This document shows, piece by piece, positions 26,676 through 34,772 of a stretch of DNA of 64,000 nucleotides (position 1 is its first letter; each line of letters starts with the position of its first letter). The stretch is from the NCBI GenBank assembly GCA_963727445.1, contig CAVSGI010000020.1, positions 448,001-512,000 on the forward strand, given 5' to 3'. A model generated the notes under the pieces. That model had not been told where the DNA came from. It saw only the letters and a list, made by a program, of their open reading frames with translations, and did not search any database. The position numbers and the translations under genes were made by a program. Origin of the DNA: an uncultured delta proteobacterium (lineage in GTDB: Bacteria > Myxococcota_A > Polyangia > Polyangiales > B10-G4).

Positions 26676-27221
26676 ATGGTCGGGACTCGCAGCGTTTTCT
26701 TCGGCGTGGTGGCGACTTGCCTCGTTTCGACGCTCGCCGGCTGTGGGGGCGGGGTCGCGGGCGCGCTCGAGACCGCCCACACCGAAGGCAGCCCCCCCGC
26801 CGGGCTCCGGGTGATCTACGACGACTACCGCGAGGACCAGGGGGGCGATCGCATCGAGCTCCGAGGCGACGGTCACCTCCGTGGGGATCGCTGGCGGCCG
26901 GGCGAGGGCCAGCGCGAGGGACGCTACTGGGAAGGCCAGGTGCCCGAGCGAACCGTGAAGGCGCTGGTCGATCTGCTGGTCGACATTCACGGCTGGGAAC
27001 AGAAGGCCGAGGAAGAGCCCAGCCGTCTGGAGGATCGTCGCGCGACCCTCACCATCGAGATCGGCGGCGAACGTTCCACCATCTGGGAGTACGTGAGCGA
27101 CCTGGAGTCGCGAAACCGCATCCACCGCGTGAAGAGTCACCTCGAAGCGCTCTCCTTCGAGGTGCGGCATCCGATGGCGGACGGCGCGAGCGGCGCGTTC
27201 GGCGGCGACAGTGAGGACTGA
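26676..27221 (+). CDS. Hypothetical lipoprotein
   Basis: MVGTRSVFFGVVATCLVSTLAGC lipobox; overlaps the MATE start. Confidence 0.7.
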   Translation: MVGTRSVFFGVVATCLVSTLAGCGGGVAGALETAHTEGSPPAGLRVIYDDYREDQGGDRIELRGDGHLRGDRWRPGEGQREGRYWEGQVPERTVKALVDLLVDIHGWEQKAEEEPSRLEDRRATLTIEIGGERSTIWEYVSDLESRNRIHRVKSHLEALSFEVRHPMADGASGAFGGDSED

Positions 27222-28680
27222 TTCCGTCGCACCAGCCACAAGCGCGACCGACCCGGTGATCGAGGCGGTGGCGATCGCCTCGCCTGGCGAGCGACGCAAA
27301 CGCATCCTGAAGCTCGCGCTCCCGATCATCGGCGGCATGGCGTCGCAGAACATCCTCAACCTCGTCGACACCGCCATGGTCGGCGTGATCGGCGACTCGG
27401 CGCTGGCGGCGGTGGGCCTCGCGTCGATGGTGAACTTCCTGGTCACGGCGTTCATCCTCGGCCTGGGCGCCGGCGTGCAGGCGATGGCCGCCCGCAGAGT
27501 GGGACAGGGTCTCGTCGACCAGACCGCCGTGCCCCTCAACGGCGGCCTGACGGTCGCCGTGAGCGCGGCGATCCCGTGGTCCATCGCCATCTGGTTCCTC
27601 GCGCCGCTCTTCTTCCCCTACCTCATCGACGACTCGGCCGTGGTGGCCCAGGGCAGCGATTATCTGCGGATGCGGCTCATCGCGATGACCGCGATGGGCA
27701 TGAACTTCTGCTTCCGCGGGTTCTGGAACGCGACCGATCGATCGCATCTGTACATGAGCACGCTGATCGTGATGCACGTCACGAACATCCTGCTCAACAG
27801 CCTCTTCATCTACGGAACGGGCCCCTACCCGGTGCCGACCTTCTTCGGGATGGAGATCGACCTCTTCTCGCCGTGGTGCCTGCCCATCGCCGAAGCCTTC
27901 GACATTCCGCGCATGGGCGCCTCGGGCGCCGGGCTCGCGTCGGCCTGCGCGACCTGGGTCGGCACGGCGACCTATTTCATGCTCGGGCTCAAGCACGCGC
28001 GCCCCGGCGGGTTCCTCCGCGGTCTTCCGGACGCGGAGACCTTGCGCGGCATGCTCCGCCTCTCGGTGCCGAACGGCGTGCAGACGATCTTCTACTCCTC
28101 GGGGATGGTCGCCTTTCACGTGCTCACCGGCATGGTCGGCACGCGCGAGCTCGCCGCCTCGAACGTGATCGTGAACCTGCTGCTCGTGGGCATGCTGCCG
28201 GGGCTCGGGTTCGGACTCGCGGGGATGAGCCTGGTGGGGCAGGCGCTCGGGCGAAAGGACCCCGAGGACGCGCGCCGTTGGGGCTACGAGGTGGCGCGGA
28301 TCGCGATGGCGGTCGTGTTCGTGATCGGCTTGCCGGGCGTGTTGGTGCCCGACGCAATTCTGCGCGTCTTCCTGCATGACGCCGCGACCCTCGAGGTCGC
28401 CGCGACCCCCTTGCGCCTCGTGTCCGGCTTCTTGTGCATCGACGCCGCCGGCATGGTCTTCATGAACTGTCTCCTCGGCGCCGGAGCCAACCGCCGGGTG
28501 ATGCTGGTCGCGGTGACCCTGCAGTGGCTCCTCTTCCTGCCGATGGTCGCGGTCGTGGGACCGATCCTGATGTGGGGTCTCATCGCCATCTACGCGGCCA
28601 ACGCCGTGTACCGAATCATCCAGGCGGGTGTGTTCTGGAGCTTCTGGCGCGGCGATTCCTGGACGGGAATCGAAGTCTGA
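27211..28680 (+). CDS. MATE family efflux transporter
   Basis: LALPII..VDTAMVG..LAAVG; about 12 TM segments; VGQALG. Confidence 0.95.
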   Translation: MRTDSVAPATSATDPVIEAVAIASPGERRKRILKLALPIIGGMASQNILNLVDTAMVGVIGDSALAAVGLASMVNFLVTAFILGLGAGVQAMAARRVGQGLVDQTAVPLNGGLTVAVSAAIPWSIAIWFLAPLFFPYLIDDSAVVAQGSDYLRMRLIAMTAMGMNFCFRGFWNATDRSHLYMSTLIVMHVTNILLNSLFIYGTGPYPVPTFFGMEIDLFSPWCLPIAEAFDIPRMGASGAGLASACATWVGTATYFMLGLKHARPGGFLRGLPDAETLRGMLRLSVPNGVQTIFYSSGMVAFHVLTGMVGTRELAASNVIVNLLLVGMLPGLGFGLAGMSLVGQALGRKDPEDARRWGYEVARIAMAVVFVIGLPGVLVPDAILRVFLHDAATLEVAATPLRLVSGFLCIDAAGMVFMNCLLGAGANRRVMLVAVTLQWLLFLPMVAVVGPILMWGLIAIYAANAVYRIIQAGVFWSFWRGDSWTGIEV

Positions 28681-28686
28681 AGCGTC

Positions 28687-29455
28687 TCAGAGCGCGACGT
28701 CGACCGCGACCTCCTCGTCGCCCACGTGGAGCGTGCCCCCGATCCGCGTGGCGTCCGCGTGCACGCGTCCCAACCAGTAGCCGGGCAGCATCTCGACCGT
28801 CTCGACGCCCTCACTCGCGAGGTGAACCGGCGCGGAGGCTTCGGTGTAGACCGCGAGCCGGCGCTCACCCTCGTCCTCGAAGAGGACGAGCTCGGCCGCG
28901 GGCGCGTCGAAGGTGTGAAGGAGCCGCCCTTCGTCCGGGCGTTCCATGGCCACCGCGCTCGCCGCGGCGACACGCAGCGGCGAGGCCGCGGCCTGCTCCG
29001 CCATGCGCAGCACCGAAAGACGCCGCGTGCATTCACGACAGCGTGTGAGGTGAAGCGCGGCGCTCGCCAGGGAGAAGCCGTCGAGCTCGCCCCGCGTCGC
29101 AGCGCCGAGGCGTCCATCGGGAGGATGAAGTGGATTCGGAGGGTCCGGTCAGCGCCTCCACGTCGGCGCCGTCGAGGGCCGCGAGCCCCGCCTTGGCGAG
29201 CGCCGCCGCCCAGGCGAGGTCCTCGGCTTCCTCTTCGTCGCCCGAGCCAGGCCCGGCGCTCAGGATCGTCCGGCGGCCCTTTCGGATCAGGCCCTTCCGT
29301 TCACTCACGGGGACCTCCGACAGCCCGGTGAAGACGGCGAGGCCGGCGGCGTGGGCGAGGGCCTCGAGGACCAGCTCGGGGGTGGCGTCGCCGCGGGTGG
29401 CCCGGGCGTGAAGCCGGTGGAATTGCTCCGCCAATCGGGGGAAGGGTGTGCTCAT
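28687..29455 (-). CDS. Putative soluble ZAS (zf-HC2) anti-sigma factor, ~255 aa; +1 frameshift near 29135
   Basis: Repair joins ORF 29033..29455 to ORF 28687..29013 and reveals HPPDGRLGAATRGELDGFSLASAALHLTRCREC (H-x24-HxxxCxxC) followed by LRVAAAS; ATGA overlap with the sigma gene. Confidence 0.7.
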
Positions 29456-30225
29456 TTCTTCGTTCTCCCTTCCTTGGACGGTCCCCGGCTGCCCCGACTG
29501 ACAGCGCGCCGGCTGGGGCGGGGCTTGCCCGCATCCGCCCGTCGCGCGCCCTTCAGGAGCTGCGTGAGCACGCTCGCCACCGGGTGATCCCAGCCCTCCA
29601 TCGCCGGCAGGATCACCCGCTCACGGCCGCGCTCGATCCACTTGTAGATGGCGGCCTTGGTCGGCGGTGGCTGGACGCCCAGCGCCAGGACTATCTCGTC
29701 GTAGCCCTGGCCGCGCACGTTCGCGAGGAGCGCCACCTGTGCGCGGCGAAGATCGCCTTGTCGTTTGACCGGGCTCTTCACGTTGTCGGCGATCCACGAC
29801 GCGCAGCGCTCGAGCACCGCGGCGAGGGCTGCCTCGAGAGCCGCCTCCTCGTCCACCTCCGGCGCTTCTTCGGCGGGCGCCGCGGGACCGACGCGATCCA
29901 CCCATTCGGCATCGGCATCCTTCGGCGTGGTGTCGAGGGCGCGATCCATCATGCGGCCGCTCTTCGTTCGGTGGTGATCGATCCTCGCCGTCTTGTGAAC
30001 CTTGCGCAGCCAGGCCTCGGCGCGCCCGGCCGTGTTCGCATCCATTCGCGAAACGGCCCCGAGCACCTTGAGCAGCGTTCGCTGCCGCACGTCGTCGTGC
30101 TCGCGCGGCGGGAGGCGATAGCGCCGGTCGATGTGCTCCGACAGGGCACGCCACGCCCACGAGAGCGCGGGCGCCGCCGGGTCCTCGGCGTCCTTGAGCG
30201 CCGTGAGTGTGTCGAGGAGCGCCAT
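29452..30225 (-). CDS. Divergent ECF-type sigma-70 factor
   Basis: Region 2-like DDVRQRTLLKV..EAWLRKVHKTARIDHHR; region 4-like GQGYDEIVLALG..AIYKWIERGRERV; basic C-terminal tail; ATG overlaps the prsW TGA. Confidence 0.72.
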   Translation of the reverse strand: MALLDTLTALKDAEDPAAPALSWAWRALSEHIDRRYRLPPREHDDVRQRTLLKVLGAVSRMDANTAGRAEAWLRKVHKTARIDHHRTKSGRMMDRALDTTPKDADAEWVDRVGPAAPAEEAPEVDEEAALEAALAAVLERCASWIADNVKSPVKRQGDLRRAQVALLANVRGQGYDEIVLALGVQPPPTKAAIYKWIERGRERVILPAMEGWDHPVASVLTQLLKGARRADAGKPRPSRRAVSRGSRGPSKEGRTKK

Positions 30226-31337
30226 CAGCCGAGCTGGTTTCGGAGCTCGACGATGTGCTTTCGCAGCGGAACGATGAACTCCATGCTGATGGTGCTGTTC
30301 TTGGTGTCCATGGCGCGGGCCGTGTGCCACTTGGAGAGCGCGAGGCGCGCCGTCGCCCGCACGAACTCCGCGCCGATCTTCCCGTGCTTCATCCGGGCCT
30401 TCAGCGTGCCGAAGGCCGAGCAGACCAGCTCGAGCTCGCCCCGGTCGATGGTGCCGAGGGCGACCTCGTCGAGGAGGTTTTCGCGGATGATCTTGCCGCG
30501 GCGCCGCACCAGGAAGCCAATCATGATCAGGAAGCCGACGACGAAGATGAGCCAGAGCGGGAAGAGGAGCAGGAAGGGGATCCCCTGACCGAAGGTCGCC
30601 GAGGCGTTCCAGATCATGTGGAGCATCACCGCGCCCATGTAGCCGAAGAAGGGCGCCATGTACTTCACGGCCGGCGAGCGCGTCTCGCGGGAGATGCCCA
30701 TCGCGATGCCGAACATGCTGGTGTAGACGGGGTGGGCCCAGGGGCCGAGGACGCCGCGCAAGAAGACGGTCATCGCGAGGATGTCCGCGCCCTGCTGCAT
30801 CGCCTCGGAGTAGTAGATGACGTTCTCCACCGCCGCGAAGCCGATGGCGGTGAAGACCGCGTAGATGATGCCGTCCACGACCCCATCGAACTCGCGCTTC
30901 AAGAAGAAGGCGACGCCCCAGATGCCGAGGCACTTGAAGCCCTCTTCGACGAAGGGCGCGCTGATCACGGCGCCGAGCACCTCGCCGAGCTGCGGGTCGA
31001 TGAGCTGCGCGAAGCCCATGACCGCCGAATTGATCACCGCGGAGAAGCCGCAGGCCACGATACCCCCCCACGCCAGGCTGCCGAGGAGCGCGTACCAGGG
31101 CTCGGGGTCGTAGCGATCGAGGAGCCGCGGCACGGTCAGGTACATGAGCATCGCGGGGAAGGCGAGGATGGCGCCGAGGAACATCGCACCGTAGTTGCCG
31201 ATGGGGTCGCCCATGAAGAGCGGCGGCACCAAGAAGACCGCGAAGAGGAGCACCAGGCCCGCGAGGAGCGCTGCGACGAAGAGGCCGAGGCCGATCTGTC
31301 GCCGCTTCTTGTCCGGGTCGGGCAGGCTCTCGCGCAT
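30225..31337 (-). CDS. prsW: PrsW-family intramembrane protease
   Basis: DRYDPEP, APFVEEGFK, DGIIYA..GFAAVEN, AHPVYT, LHMIWN; multiple TM segments. Confidence 0.93.
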   Translation of the reverse strand: MRESLPDPDKKRRQIGLGLFVAALLAGLVLLFAVFLVPPLFMGDPIGNYGAMFLGAILAFPAMLMYLTVPRLLDRYDPEPWYALLGSLAWGGIVACGFSAVINSAVMGFAQLIDPQLGEVLGAVISAPFVEEGFKCLGIWGVAFFLKREFDGVVDGIIYAVFTAIGFAAVENVIYYSEAMQQGADILAMTVFLRGVLGPWAHPVYTSMFGIAMGISRETRSPAVKYMAPFFGYMGAVMLHMIWNASATFGQGIPFLLLFPLWLIFVVGFLIMIGFLVRRRGKIIRENLLDEVALGTIDRGELELVCSAFGTLKARMKHGKIGAEFVRATARLALSKWHTARAMDTKNSTISMEFIVPLRKHIVELRNQLG

Positions 31338-31359
31338 GGCCGGTCGCGAGGATACCCGA

Positions 31360-33214
31360 TCAGGTCAGGCGGAGCGCCCGATTCAGGAGCGCGCCCAGGG
31401 CGCGGTGCACCTGGGGTGCATCGCCGAAGGAAAGCGCGCGCTCCGCCCGGCGCTCGGCAGCGGCGAGGAAGGTCGGGACCTCGCCGTAGCGCGGCAGGTG
31501 CGACAGCGCGGTGAACGCGCGGGCGATGGCGTCGGCGCCGAGGGCGTCGCGCTTCGCGCGGAGCTGCGCTTCGACGAGGACGTTGAGCTGCGAGAGAAAG
31601 CGCACGTGCGGCAGAAGCCCCCGGCCGTGAGCGACGGGCGAGGCGGCGAGGAGCTCCCAGCCGGCTTCGGGATGCTTCTTCTGCGAGCCGAGGGCGGTGC
31701 CGAGGAGCCGGCGCGCGACCAGGCCCGGAAGCGGCATCTCCTCGATCGCGGACAGGACCGTCTCGTGCCGGAGCACGCGAAGCGCCTCGCGCAGCGCATC
31801 CGTCTCGACGAGCGCGCCCGCCCAGGCGACGCGCAGCCACGTTTCCCGCGACGCGCGCCGTCCATCCGGAAGCGCGTCGAGCATCGCGTTCGCTTCTCCG
31901 TAGACCGAGCGCGCTTCGTCGAGACGTCCCGCGCGACCGAGCGCGTCGATCAGGTAGCCCGCGGTCCGCGTGGTGCCGCTCGGTCGATGCGCGCGCACGA
32001 TGGTGAGGGCGCTCTTCTGGTGTTTTACCGCGGCCGCAGCGCGCCCCCGCGCCAGGGCCACCAGCCCCGCGCAGCCGTGGGCCTTCAAGAGCTCGCCGCG
32101 CAGCCGCCCGCGCTTCGCCGCCGCGATCGACGCCTCCGCGGCCTCGGTCGCTTCGGGGAAGCGGCAGAGTTTGGCGAAGGTGAGCGCCTCGTGCTGGGCG
32201 AGGAGCGAGCGCTGCTCGTCGGGCACGGCCTCCTCGCCGGCCGGGCTCCGGGCGAGGGCGCGCGCCTGCGAGAGGATCGTCGCGCTCTCGTCGGGCGCGC
32301 CCAGATGACGGCTCACCGCGCCCATCATCGTCAGCACCTCGACGCGAAGGTCCGGTCGGTAGTCGGGGAGCTCCGAGAGCAGGCGCTCGAGCGGCTCGCG
32401 CTGGGTCGGCCAGCGGTAGCCGTCCCAGCCGCTTCGAAAGGTCCGTCGCGCGTCGGCGACCGCGGATTCGGGATCGCGCCGGGTCGTGGGCTGTGCGGCG
32501 AGGGCCGCGTCGAGGAGCGCCGCGGTAGTGGCGACGCCCACCACCTCGACCTCCGTACCGCCCGCCGCCGTGCGCACCGAGGCGAGATTGCGGCTCGGCA
32601 CGATCGCGCGCGACAGAATCCGCGCGCGAGGCGAGGGATCCTTCGAGCTTGCTCGAGAGCCCGCCGACCGAACCGATCTTGTCGCCGAGGAGCTCGCCGC
32701 TCACCAGCGTCGTCGATCGGACGCGCCGCCCGCTGAAGAGCGCCACCGCCGACACGAAGGTCGCGGCGCCGAGAGAGCGACCCGACACGTCGAGGCGCGG
32801 CGCCACCGCCGGTTGTGCGAAGGCGAGGCCGTAACGGTCGAGGGGCAGGCGCGGCTCGGCGTGCTCCGCCGCCGCTCGGAGCGCGTCCTCGACTCCCTCG
32901 CCCTGGAGGCTCGAGCGCGTCGACACGAAGACCAGGCGAGCGAAGCCGACGCCGGTCTCGGTCACGAACGGAAGGAGCACGGCGTGCGGCGGTACGGGCG
33001 CCGACTGACCCTCGAGGAGGGCGCGCCCGATCCCGAGCGCACGCAGCCGTTCCGCCATCGCCTCCGACACCGCGCCCGGGTCCGAGAGAAGCAGGGCACG
33101 TTCGATGGCGTCGAGGAGGAAGCGCCGCTCGCCGATCCGCTTCGCCGCCGCGTGGCGCGCCACGAGCAGATCCAGCCGACCCGCGATCACCAGCGCTTCG
33201 ATGGGGGTATCCAC
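31360..33214 (-). CDS. Lon-type (S16) Ser-Lys protease domain fused to TPR-like helical region, ~617 aa; +1 frameshift near 32617
   Basis: DVSGRSLGAATFVSAVALFSGRRVRSTTLVSGELLGDKIGSVGGLSSKL, then after repair AIVPSRN..VEVVGVATTAALLDAAL; parallels Lon DGPSAG..TGE..IGGLKEK..IP..N; no Walker A seen. Confidence 0.75.
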
Positions 33215-33266: not shown

Positions 33267-34772
33267 ATGCACCCCCTCACCACCATCCATGCGGCCTTCC
33301 ACGAGCCGCAGACGCGGATCTACAAGGTGGTGAACGTCACGGTCTGGGTGCTGATCGTCCTGTCGGTCGTCCTCCTCGTGGTCGAGCCCTTCCTGGTCGA
33401 GCAGCCGTCTCACGCGCTCAGGTGGTTGGTGGCGATCGACGAGACACTCCTGGCCATCTTCGCGGTGGAGGTGTCCCTGAGGCTCCTCTCCTACCGACCA
33501 CCCGACCTGGACGTCTTTCGGCGGCCGCCGCTCGGCGCGCTCAGGACGCACCTCTGGTCGCGGTTGGCCTTCGCCTGTCAGCCCATGAACGTCGTGGACA
33601 TCATCACGGTGATGTCCTTCGTGCCGGCGCTGCGGAGCCTCCGCGCGCTGCGACTGTTGCGACTGCTCCGGACGATGAAGGTGTTCCGGTACGCCAACCC
33701 CTTCGAGGGTGTGATCCTCGCCATCGAGCGCGACCGGCTGCTCTTCACGCTGGCCTTCGGGTTGCTCCTGGTGGAGGTGGTCCTGGGCGGGGTCAGTATC
33801 TACCTCGTCGAGCGCGTTCAGAACCCGGGCATCAACAGCATCGGCGACGGCGTGTGGTGGGCGCTGGTGACGATCACCACCGTCGGCTTCGGCGACATCA
33901 CGGCGGTCACACCCCTCGGGCGGGTGGTGGCGGGCGTCCTGATGGTCGGCGGCATGTTCATGTTGGCCTTCTTCGCAGGTATCGTCGGCCACAGCCTGCT
34001 CAACACCGTGCTCAGCGTGAGGGAGGAACAGTTCCGGATGTCCGGCTACGTCAATCACATCGTCGTCTGCGGCTTCACCGACGACTCGTCGCTCCTGCTC
34101 GGAGGCCTGTCGGACGAGCTGGACCTCGACAAGACCAAGGTGCTGCTCTTCGCGAACCGGCCGCGGCCCAACTCTCTGCCGCCGCAGTTCATGTGGGTCG
34201 AGGGGGACCCCTCGAAGGAGAGCGAGCTCGACAAGGGGCGGCTCACCCACGCACGCGCCGTGATCCTCGTCGCCGATCACAACGAGCACGGCTCGCAGGC
34301 CGACGCGATGACCATCCTGACGGCGTTCACCATCCGCAGTTACATGGCGAAAAAGCAGAGCTCGGGCGACCGAAAGAACGAGCTCTACGTCATCGCGGAG
34401 ATCCTCGACCCCGAGAACATCGACCACGCGCGCACCGCGGGCATCGACGAGGTCGTGCAGACCCAGCGGGTGGGGATGGACCTCATCACCCACGCGGTGA
34501 CCAACCCCGGAACCGGCGGCCTGATCGCGCAGATCGCGCTCCACACCGAGGCCAGCATCTACGTCGGCCAGGTTCCGGACGCCCTCGAGCTGCCGACGAG
34601 CTATGCCGATGTCGCGGCGCACGTTCGCAAGACGACTGGGGCGCTGGTCATCGGATATCGGCCTTCGATGTCGGACCCTTCGCGGATCAACCCACCCGAC
34701 GACACCCGCATCCAAGCCGGCGGCCTGCTCGTGTATCTGGCCGAAGGGCCGGTGCTCGCCGCCGCGACCTGA
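33267..34772 (+). CDS. Voltage-gated-type potassium channel with RCK domain
   Basis: S4-like LRSLRALRLLRLLR, filter TTVGFGD, NHIVVCG Rossmann-like RCK. Confidence 0.93.
   Translation: MHPLTTIHAAFHEPQTRIYKVVNVTVWVLIVLSVVLLVVEPFLVEQPSHALRWLVAIDETLLAIFAVEVSLRLLSYRPPDLDVFRRPPLGALRTHLWSRLAFACQPMNVVDIITVMSFVPALRSLRALRLLRLLRTMKVFRYANPFEGVILAIERDRLLFTLAFGLLLVEVVLGGVSIYLVERVQNPGINSIGDGVWWALVTITTVGFGDITAVTPLGRVVAGVLMVGGMFMLAFFAGIVGHSLLNTVLSVREEQFRMSGYVNHIVVCGFTDDSSLLLGGLSDELDLDKTKVLLFANRPRPNSLPPQFMWVEGDPSKESELDKGRLTHARAVILVADHNEHGSQADAMTILTAFTIRSYMAKKQSSGDRKNELYVIAEILDPENIDHARTAGIDEVVQTQRVGMDLITHAVTNPGTGGLIAQIALHTEASIYVGQVPDALELPTSYADVAAHVRKTTGALVIGYRPSMSDPSRINPPDDTRIQAGGLLVYLAEGPVLAAAT

Follow-up and report, generated by a model that had tools for sequence, protein, structure and literature searches.

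In a 64,000-nt stretch of contig CAVSGI010000020.1 (positions 448,001-512,000; hereafter the window, from the genome labelled G000), a minus-strand cluster carries genes for a Lon-type protease with tetratricopeptide repeats (TPR; gene 1), a PrsW-family protein (gene 2), a sigma factor of the extracytoplasmic function (ECF) type (gene 3) and an anti-sigma-like protein (gene 4). Genes 1, 3 and 4 form the conserved core of this locus. We consider it probable that they act as a proteolytic switch of the CalpL/CalpT/CalpS type which runs a DNA-damage regulon in parallel with LexA. The initial annotation, made from this DNA alone, described four co-oriented genes joined by a 22-nt gap, a TGATG overlap and an ATGA overlap, all of which were confirmed from the coordinates. 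The order is gene 1, gene 2, gene 3, gene 4, and a genome of the same genus (G001) has the identical four-gene order with every gene in a single frame.

Conservation of the module

Co-occurrence was assessed in 250 genomes of the order, a sample that excludes the unpublished G122. Orthologues were called at E 1e-24 for the protease, a cut-off within the gap to canonical Lon, and at E 1e-20 for the sigma factor, within the gap to other sigmas. The protease orthologue occurred in 45 of the 250 genomes and the sigma orthologue in 46; both were shared in 45, and the exception is a genome that is 82% complete. Named records among the carriers fall within Sandaracinaceae, Polyangia, Myxococcota.

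Gene 4 lies straight after the sigma gene in 44 of 50 loci; of the other six, four are orphan paralogues and two run into a contig edge. In 14 of 46 genomes the three core genes are directly adjacent, in nine they share one orientation with a single insert, and in three they are rearranged neighbors, a total of 26/46. In a sample spanning the phylum, gene 4 turned up in 3/301 genomes, and the gene order was the same in each.

PrsW has a different distribution. It is beside the sigma gene in only 6/46 genomes and elsewhere in 35, a full-length PrsW is also found in 8/44 module-negative genomes, and two changes on a quick sigma tree account for its linkage to sigma. A working role for PrsW as the fourth part, as initially annotated, was therefore not upheld, and because its linkage is unconserved the conserved core consists of three genes: the Lon-TPR protease, the ECF sigma factor and gene 4.

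Protease

The reading of gene 1 as a Lon-type Ser-Lys domain with helical repeats was borne out by an invariant dyad and by matches to Lon_C and TPR families. The Ser and Lys of the dyad are 42 residues apart and both are invariant in 42/42 full-length homologues, which are 613-653 amino acids (aa) long and match Pfam Lon_C (PF05362) and TPR. The family profile matches Lon proteolytic domains at E 1e-11. The structure model (616 aa) has a predicted local distance difference test score (pLDDT) of 91, and its Foldseek matches are Lon domains and the TPRs of MalT-III, NprR, Rap and LGN. Pfam scans gave no AAA hit and the 616-aa model has no room for an AAA+ module, while the C-terminal part is a TPR superhelix with no SAVED domain in the model or in the Pfam scan. 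Judged by sequence and model, gene 1 carries a Lon (S16) proteolytic domain and is not a canonical ATP-dependent Lon. A cultured species with the protease is Sandaracinus amylolyticus (homologue P0016). Related Lon-TPR clusters turn up in other phyla and are noted here as leads.

Anti-sigma-like protein

The gene-4 model, built on the G001 orthologue (pLDDT 87), is all-helical over residues 1-162, has a low-confidence linker at residues 165-176 (pLDDT < 50) and ends in a beta-sandwich; a three-helix segment of the helical part bears the zinc motif. Gene 4 looks soluble by sequence and model, as 41 of 44 gene-4 proteins lack any 19-residue window at hydropathy 2.0 and the model has no membrane helix between the domains.

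Within the linker, which lies between the anti-sigma-like part and the C-terminal domain and has the consensus L-x-[LV]-A-A, an Ala-Ala pair is invariant in 49/49 homologues although mean column identity is 23%. The pair keeps a constant distance from an invariant Pro in 47/49, and this constant spacing argues against an alignment artefact.

The initial annotation assigned gene 4 to the zinc-containing anti-sigma (ZAS) class. This holds for the window copy, which carries H-x24-HxxxCxxC, and not for the family, as the zinc motif is found in only 13/49 homologues. The zf-HC2 match of the window gene 4 is below the cut-off (E 0.086), and zf-HC2 occurs in 54% of the members of the top Atlas cluster for gene 4 (score 0.90). 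Searches with gene 4 otherwise gave little: no homologue had a domain hit in the Pfam scan, no solved chain is similar to it in sequence, and Foldseek returned no match at E 0.001; the best VIA Z was 7.2, and the fold matches were generic helical bundles and Ig-like sandwiches. CalpT was not among the fold matches listed, though gene 4 may be related to it.

Model of the protease bound to gene 4

Modelling of the protease:anti-sigma complex, a step suggested with the initial annotation, passed its controls. The intact G001 pair, modelled with alignments, scored 0.65 and the best of three controls 0.08; for comparison, the 0.65 mark was reached by 116/157 solved complexes and by 2/215 mismatched pairs. 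The runs had at least 47% of contacts in common and a partner pLDDT of at least 77. A pass owed to an already solved structure is less likely here because no solved chain resembles gene 4 in sequence.

In the model, protease residues 26-36, including an invariant Arg31, and the TPR tail lie against the gene-4 beta-sandwich. The closest contacts are at the gene-4 invariant residues P182, Y212, G234 and Y235, so that the closest contacts pair invariant residues of the two families; the mean conservation of the whole interface is modestly higher (0.55 vs 0.46). The model supports binding of the protease to the C-terminal domain of gene 4.

Sigma factor

The ECF sigma assignment of gene 3 was supported, as profile searches found both the sigma2 and sigma4 regions. 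Sigma70_r2 was found in 72/85 homologues (E ≤ 0.01), and PF04542 is above its cut-off in the window protein. The family profile aligns with the ECF sigma SigE from sigma2 through sigma4 (E 6e-13). The sigma4 region is divergent, with Pfam r4_2 matching just 2/85 homologues, and a single-protein pattern scan with the sigma gave no match.

Orphan paralogues of the sigma gene (L031, which is G000:C13:474000-496000, L025, L062 and L067) sit on island-like DNA and adjoin sigma-54 activators, DUF932 or AbiEi genes. The G000 island with the orphan L031 holds five strict sites of the promoter motif described next. Mobile elements may use or copy the switch.

Promoter motif and predicted repair regulon

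A motif, YGTCAGT-N16-CG(T/A)C, lies between the end of the sigma gene and gene 4, at 41-301 nt from the gene-4 start and in differing frames. With leave-one-out scoring it exceeded all 100 shuffles before gene 4 in 38/45 loci; the matrix was seeded from 10 sites first chosen by pattern. Across the genome, 20 strict matches have a spacer of 16, against 0-7 for any other spacer length between 10 and 24. The motif has the architecture of ECF promoters as given in PMC3426412, being bipartite with a CGT-type -10 box and a spacer of about 16 nt, near its own operon.

Of 24 sites in G000, nine precede recA, recN, radA, ssb, priA, dnaB and sbcD/Mre11-like, addB-like and imuA-like genes, and two precede gene 4 and the paralogous sigma gene. 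Further sites precede an AbiEi-type regulator, a nucleotidyltransferase-like gene, an FHA protein, an APH-family gene, genes of unknown function and two paralogous proteins with a possible HNH-like end but no family hit. At least two sites lie inside unrelated genes. No motif site was found at recJ, recQ, parA or the second recA of G000.

An independent test of association with the module compared 15 genomes that carry it with 15 others. The 300 nt upstream of four repair genes were scored with a matrix trained solely on gene-4 promoters at a threshold of 12 of 24.7 bits; three rows with missing upstream DNA were dropped and second copies were left unscored. Sites preceded radA, ssb, sbcD-like and recN genes in 30/48 cases in module-bearing genomes and in 1/48 in genomes without the module (radA 7/14 vs 0/12; ssb 8/14 vs 0/14; sbcD-like 5/5 vs 1/9; recN 10/15 vs 0/13). 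Controls gave 0/96 within genes and 1/96 on the reverse strand.

Sites upstream of recA were seen in G000, G001, G014, G044 and G052. Elsewhere, in genomes where part of the sites were annotated, sites precede recJ (G022, G035), recQ (G113), recC (G014), sbcD (G014, G052) and dnaB (G162), as well as SNF2 helicases, Vsr, a CBASS-type cyclase, an integrase and many unknown or unrelated genes. A site also lies before each of the two orphan sigma paralogues, in G000 and G001, and before 2/29 protease genes.

The module as a replacement for LexA was considered and rejected, since lexA is present in G000 and above its cut-off in 57/61 genomes. For the same reason, the regulon is placed beside the SOS response.

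Several further features of the sites were recorded. Sites in single genomes precede a CBASS-type cyclase (L263:1557-2504), a dCTP-deaminase-like gene (L134:1538-2104), a DISARM-like helicase (L275:278-1699) and an integrase (L269:16-1365), hinting that defense islands join the regulon. Between lineages the motif changes concertedly at its several targets; in G024 the final -35 position is A at all four sites, and CGAC is the version found before gene 4 in genus g42 (L050, L052, L054, L056). At many sites (L154, L158, L243, L262, L265 and others; counted without a control) the start codon follows the -10 box by 8-9 nt, a spacing which suggests leaderless transcripts. G000 has two recA genes (C20:252124 and C21:187061), and the motif is upstream of the C20 copy only, which is frameshifted in the assembly.

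Proposed mechanism and alternatives

In the chain that we favor, gene 4 would keep the ECF sigma factor inactive, and the Lon-TPR protease would dock through its N-terminal helices on the gene-4 beta-sandwich, as modelled. A damage signal, which by analogy is most plausibly single-stranded DNA (ssDNA) or a repair intermediate read by the TPR domain, might activate the Ser-Lys dyad. The protease would then cut the L-x-[LV]-A-A linker and expose an Ala-Ala degron, and ClpXP would remove the anti-sigma fragment, as for CalpT; clpX is present. The freed sigma would transcribe YGTCAGT-N16-CG(T/A)C promoters, the motif being visible in the DNA and gene 3 its predicted reader. Targets would comprise recA, recN, radA, ssb, priA, dnaB, sbcD-like, addB/recC, recJ, recQ, imuA-like and some defense or mobile-element genes. 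The site before gene 4 would provide negative feedback, and PrsW would be a passenger. DNA damage rather than envelope stress is favored as the trigger because of the promoter and the repair regulon.

A number of observations weigh against this chain. The module-bearing genomes are close kin, so that co-occurrence and the other presence/absence contrasts amount to roughly one event rather than 45. No protease gene was found next to the sigma gene in 20/46 genomes, some of these being contig breaks. The main-operon sigma gene has no motif site within 300 nt upstream, and only 2/49 sigma genes have one, both of them orphan paralogues. Four of the 15 module-bearing genomes tested (G010, G055, G059, G115) have no site at any scored repair gene, and raw motif density overlaps between genomes with the module (1.2-3.5 per Mb) and others (0-2.2). 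As to the signal, conserved TPR positions hold 11 R/K vs 2 D/E; this basic skew is a weak hint of an ssDNA-type ligand, and other domains share it.

The main rival, which we regard as unlikely, holds that another ECF sigma or a lineage regulator reads the motif, with gene 4 as one target and a different output for the module. Another sigma could read it because the ECF41 promoter, TGTCACA-n16-CGTC (PMC3426412), is similar, and this similarity counts against our reading as well; any lineage-specific regulator would give the same contrast because the lineage is one kin group, and the missing site at the main-operon sigma gene points the same way. Opposed to this are the retention of the site before gene 4 in 38/45 loci at variable distance and frame, its presence before both orphan sigma genes and some protease genes, and the fact that the only reported targets of ECF41 are neighboring COE genes.

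It is quite unlikely that the protease binds gene 4 while the sigma is freed by zinc loss, partner switching or direct attack by ClpXP, or that the main substrates of the protease differ. The complex model scores docking on the C-terminal domain and not the linker in the active site, and the window copy retains its zinc motif. Release by zinc loss fits poorly with a family in which the zinc ligands are missing in 36/49 homologues and Ala-Ala is kept, and the invariant dyad also speaks for proteolysis. As for the docking geometry, CalpL, too, binds the C-terminal fragment of CalpT through its N-domain and cleaves in trans (10.1101/2024.05.08.593097).

We consider it improbable that phage infection is the trigger and defense the main output, with repair genes induced alongside. 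The closest known systems are antiviral, and motif sites are also found in front of a CBASS-type cyclase gene in G022 and a dCTP-deaminase-like gene in G162, as well as of DISARM-like SNF2 helicases, an AbiEi-type regulator and an integrase. However, these defense targets each occur in one or few genomes, whereas the targets common to genomes are housekeeping repair genes. The module itself is single-copy and nearly universal in its lineage, unlike patchy defense systems, and the best PADLOC match was one weak, unrelated hit (E 0.019).

A four-gene cascade, in which PrsW senses envelope stress and its product activates the TPR protease or attacks the anti-sigma, is very improbable. The prsW gene is translationally coupled to sigma in the window and occupies the same place in G001, G005 and G024, and it stays with sigma where the protease gene has moved (G023, G010). 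Yet the linkage is sparse and traceable to two changes, as given above, PrsW also occurs in module-negative genomes, and an unrelated 475-aa gene takes the same slot in other lineages. The precedent also differs, as PrsW acts on RsiW at site 1 of an intramembrane cascade and 41/44 gene-4 proteins stay below hydropathy 2.0.

Locus organization and frameshifts

The features of the locus are collected in Table 1.

Table 1. Positions of genes, motifs and sequence anomalies in the window (all on the minus strand)
Feature	Position	Strand	Remarks
Gene 1, Lon-type Ser-Lys protease, ~615 aa	31360..33214	-	N-terminal helical docking domain, Lon proteolytic domain, TPR superhelix
Gene 2, PrsW-family intramembrane metalloprotease	30225..31337	-	PF13367 E 8.7e-49; lineage-specific neighbor, non-core
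Gene 3, divergent ECF-type sigma factor	29452..30225	-	Conserved RRADAG tail
Gene 4, soluble anti-sigma-like protein, ~255 aa	28687..29455	-	Helical N-domain, three-helix anti-sigma-like domain, Ala-Ala linker, Ig-like beta-sandwich
Catalytic Ser codon of gene 1 (GxS motif)	32774..32776	-	Invariant 42/42
Catalytic Lys codon of gene 1	32648..32650	-	Invariant 42/42
Extra base in gene 1	32617..32618	-	Pairwise DNA alignment to G001
Extra base in gene 4	29135..29136	-	DNA alignment to G001
Zinc (ZAS-type) motif of gene 4, H-x24-HxxxCxxC	29029..29127	-	H at 29127, HxxxCxxC at 29052-29029
LRVAAA linker of gene 4	28960..28977	-	Predicted cleavage site and cryptic C-terminal Ala-Ala degron
C-terminal beta-sandwich of gene 4	28690..28953	-	Predicted docking site for the protease (complex model, G001 orthologues)
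Predicted -35 box of gene-4 promoter, TGTCAGT	29497..29503	-	Within 3' end of sigma gene
Predicted -10 box of gene-4 promoter, CGTCC	29476..29480	-	16 nt past the -35 box

The two single-base frameshifts reported in the initial annotation are present: genes 1 and 4 each hold one extra base relative to the intact G001 orthologue, and both are probably assembly errors. A search with 167 G001 genes recovered orthologues of 114 (55% identity, 70% cover), and frame changes in the G000 assembly affected 12 of these 114, of which a few may be repeat artefacts. The ratio of nonsynonymous to synonymous substitution rates (dN/dS) past the indels matches that before them and that of the intact sigma gene, with gene 1 values of 0.31/0.90 and 0.31/0.95. 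Both indels lie within GAATC/GATTC, as do 3/17 other frame breaks, giving 5/19 for all frame breaks of the assembly vs 2.4% of random windows. This suggests a systematic error at GATC sites in the G000 assembly, and other “pseudogenes” there deserve caution. Genuine indels in a decaying locus are highly improbable: in the single DNA run (word share 0.07) no read spans either indel, but frame changes are assembly-wide and split recA too, dN/dS is unchanged along the genes and the indels share their sequence context with other breaks.

The locus is flanked by a K+ channel with an RCK/TrkA domain (33267-34772, +) and a MATE transporter (27211-28680, +), with no hint that either belongs to the module. 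In other genomes, a TerB-family gene of 108 aa immediately precedes the protease gene in 15 loci (L026-L029, L038, L040, L042, L045-L048, L070, L072, L076, L077; e.g., L027:5435-5761) and the sigma gene in three more; in G000 it is located elsewhere. None of 18 TerB genes has a motif site. TerB is a possible accessory part in Sandaracinaceae. The gene of about 475 aa that fills the PrsW slot between protease and sigma has an N-terminal coiled coil (L040:5908-7332, L043:1218-2633, L048:5694-7121).

Relation to known systems

CalpL holds the C-terminal CalpT fragment on its N-domain and cuts LQLAA|A; the degron thereby exposed is required for the release of CalpS (10.1101/2024.05.08.593097). The module shares with this cascade an ATP-independent Lon Ser-Lys protease, a soluble anti-sigma with an Ala-rich site between its domains, here a feature of the sequence (10.1101/2024.05.08.593097; 10.1101/2024.05.08.593092), a protease N-domain placed on the anti-sigma C-terminal domain, here by modelling, and a predicted Ala-Ala degron for ClpXP. 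It differs in having a TPR superhelix instead of SAVED and a chromosomal repair regulon as its predicted output, and whereas CalpT combines a MazF-like N-domain with a DUF2080 C-domain, gene 4 is helical with a beta-sandwich. Cmr2-type Cas10 was not found in any of the five genomes searched, a search that did not extend to the Csm1 model, and the window neighbors are the transporter and the channel. With no SAVED, no CRISPR link found and a different anti-sigma fold, the module would work like CalpL/T/S but is not a member of that family. The CRISPR-independent analogue of a Lon protease, anti-sigma and sigma proposed in the initial annotation is thus supported by co-occurrence, the invariant dyad, the complex model, the Ala-rich linker and the lack of a detected Cas10, and its PrsW component is not.

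Two further systems couple a TPR-containing protease to sigma control. In Csx29-Csx30-CASP-sigma of type III-E CRISPR (PMC10028731), the substrate is likewise a sigma inhibitor and the response transcriptional; unlike the Lon domain here, for which no Cas partner was found, Csx29 is a CHAT cysteine protease controlled by Cas7-11 and target RNA. DdvA-DdvS of Myxococcus xanthus (PMC11506125) resembles the module in its myxobacterial ECF sigma, CHCC zinc anti-sigma and TPR-protease architecture, and the gene-4 profile has a weak, non-significant match to the DdvA zinc domain (E 0.9). DdvA, however, spans the membrane, carries a periplasmic TPR-CHAT within that one chain and controls a defense island, whereas the parts described here look cytoplasmic and the protease is a separate gene. 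In the intramembrane cascade of Bacillus subtilis, PrsW makes the first cut in RsiW and RasP the next (PMC3498285); gene 2 is of the PrsW family as well, but gene 4 looks soluble and the PrsW linkage is unconserved.

Among damage responses, PprI (IrrE)/DdrO of Deinococcus relies on a metalloprotease that is activated by ssDNA and cuts an XRE repressor (PMC12288472). The module would similarly use a dedicated protease to switch on damage genes independently of LexA by cutting a negative regulator, except that here the protease would be a serine protease of the Lon type, its target an anti-sigma and the output a new sigma-promoter pair. RecA, PprI and WYL activators all respond to ssDNA (PMC12288472). 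The WYL activators PafBC, SiwR and DriD and DdiA of M. xanthus also exert LexA-independent repair control that coexists with RecA/LexA (PMC12288472), but these are DNA-binding activators or XRE regulators, and the list in that source holds no proteolysis-released ECF sigma.

No description of a Lon-TPR protease, sigma and anti-sigma with a repair regulon was found in the literature searched, which mostly excludes subscription papers. The main text of the ECF reclassification has no whole-word “Lon” or “PrsW”; its supplements, outside the search, could hold this sigma group.

Significance

The LexA-independent responses known so far depend on WYL activators, Ada, XRE regulators or a metalloprotease that cuts a repressor (PMC12288472), and none was found to be run by a protease-released ECF sigma. 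The predicted output of the module is previously undescribed and, if confirmed, would be a new class of DNA-damage response. As a tentative wider view, such a class would consist of a TPR-gated Lon protease that senses ssDNA or a repair intermediate, cuts an anti-sigma and frees an ECF sigma for recA, recN, radA, ssb, priA, dnaB and nuclease genes independently of LexA; defense islands and mobile elements would plug into the same promoter, some with their own sigma copy, and CalpL/T/S would be a CRISPR-recruited version of a general chromosomal switch.

As the module names a protease, its catalytic residues, a predicted substrate and cut site, a sigma factor, a promoter and targets, each step is directly testable. 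Lineage-wise variation of the motif could serve to map sigma-DNA contacts. If true, the proposed switch would show a role for CRISPR CalpL/T/S logic outside CRISPR and might serve as an orthogonal expression switch that responds to damage.

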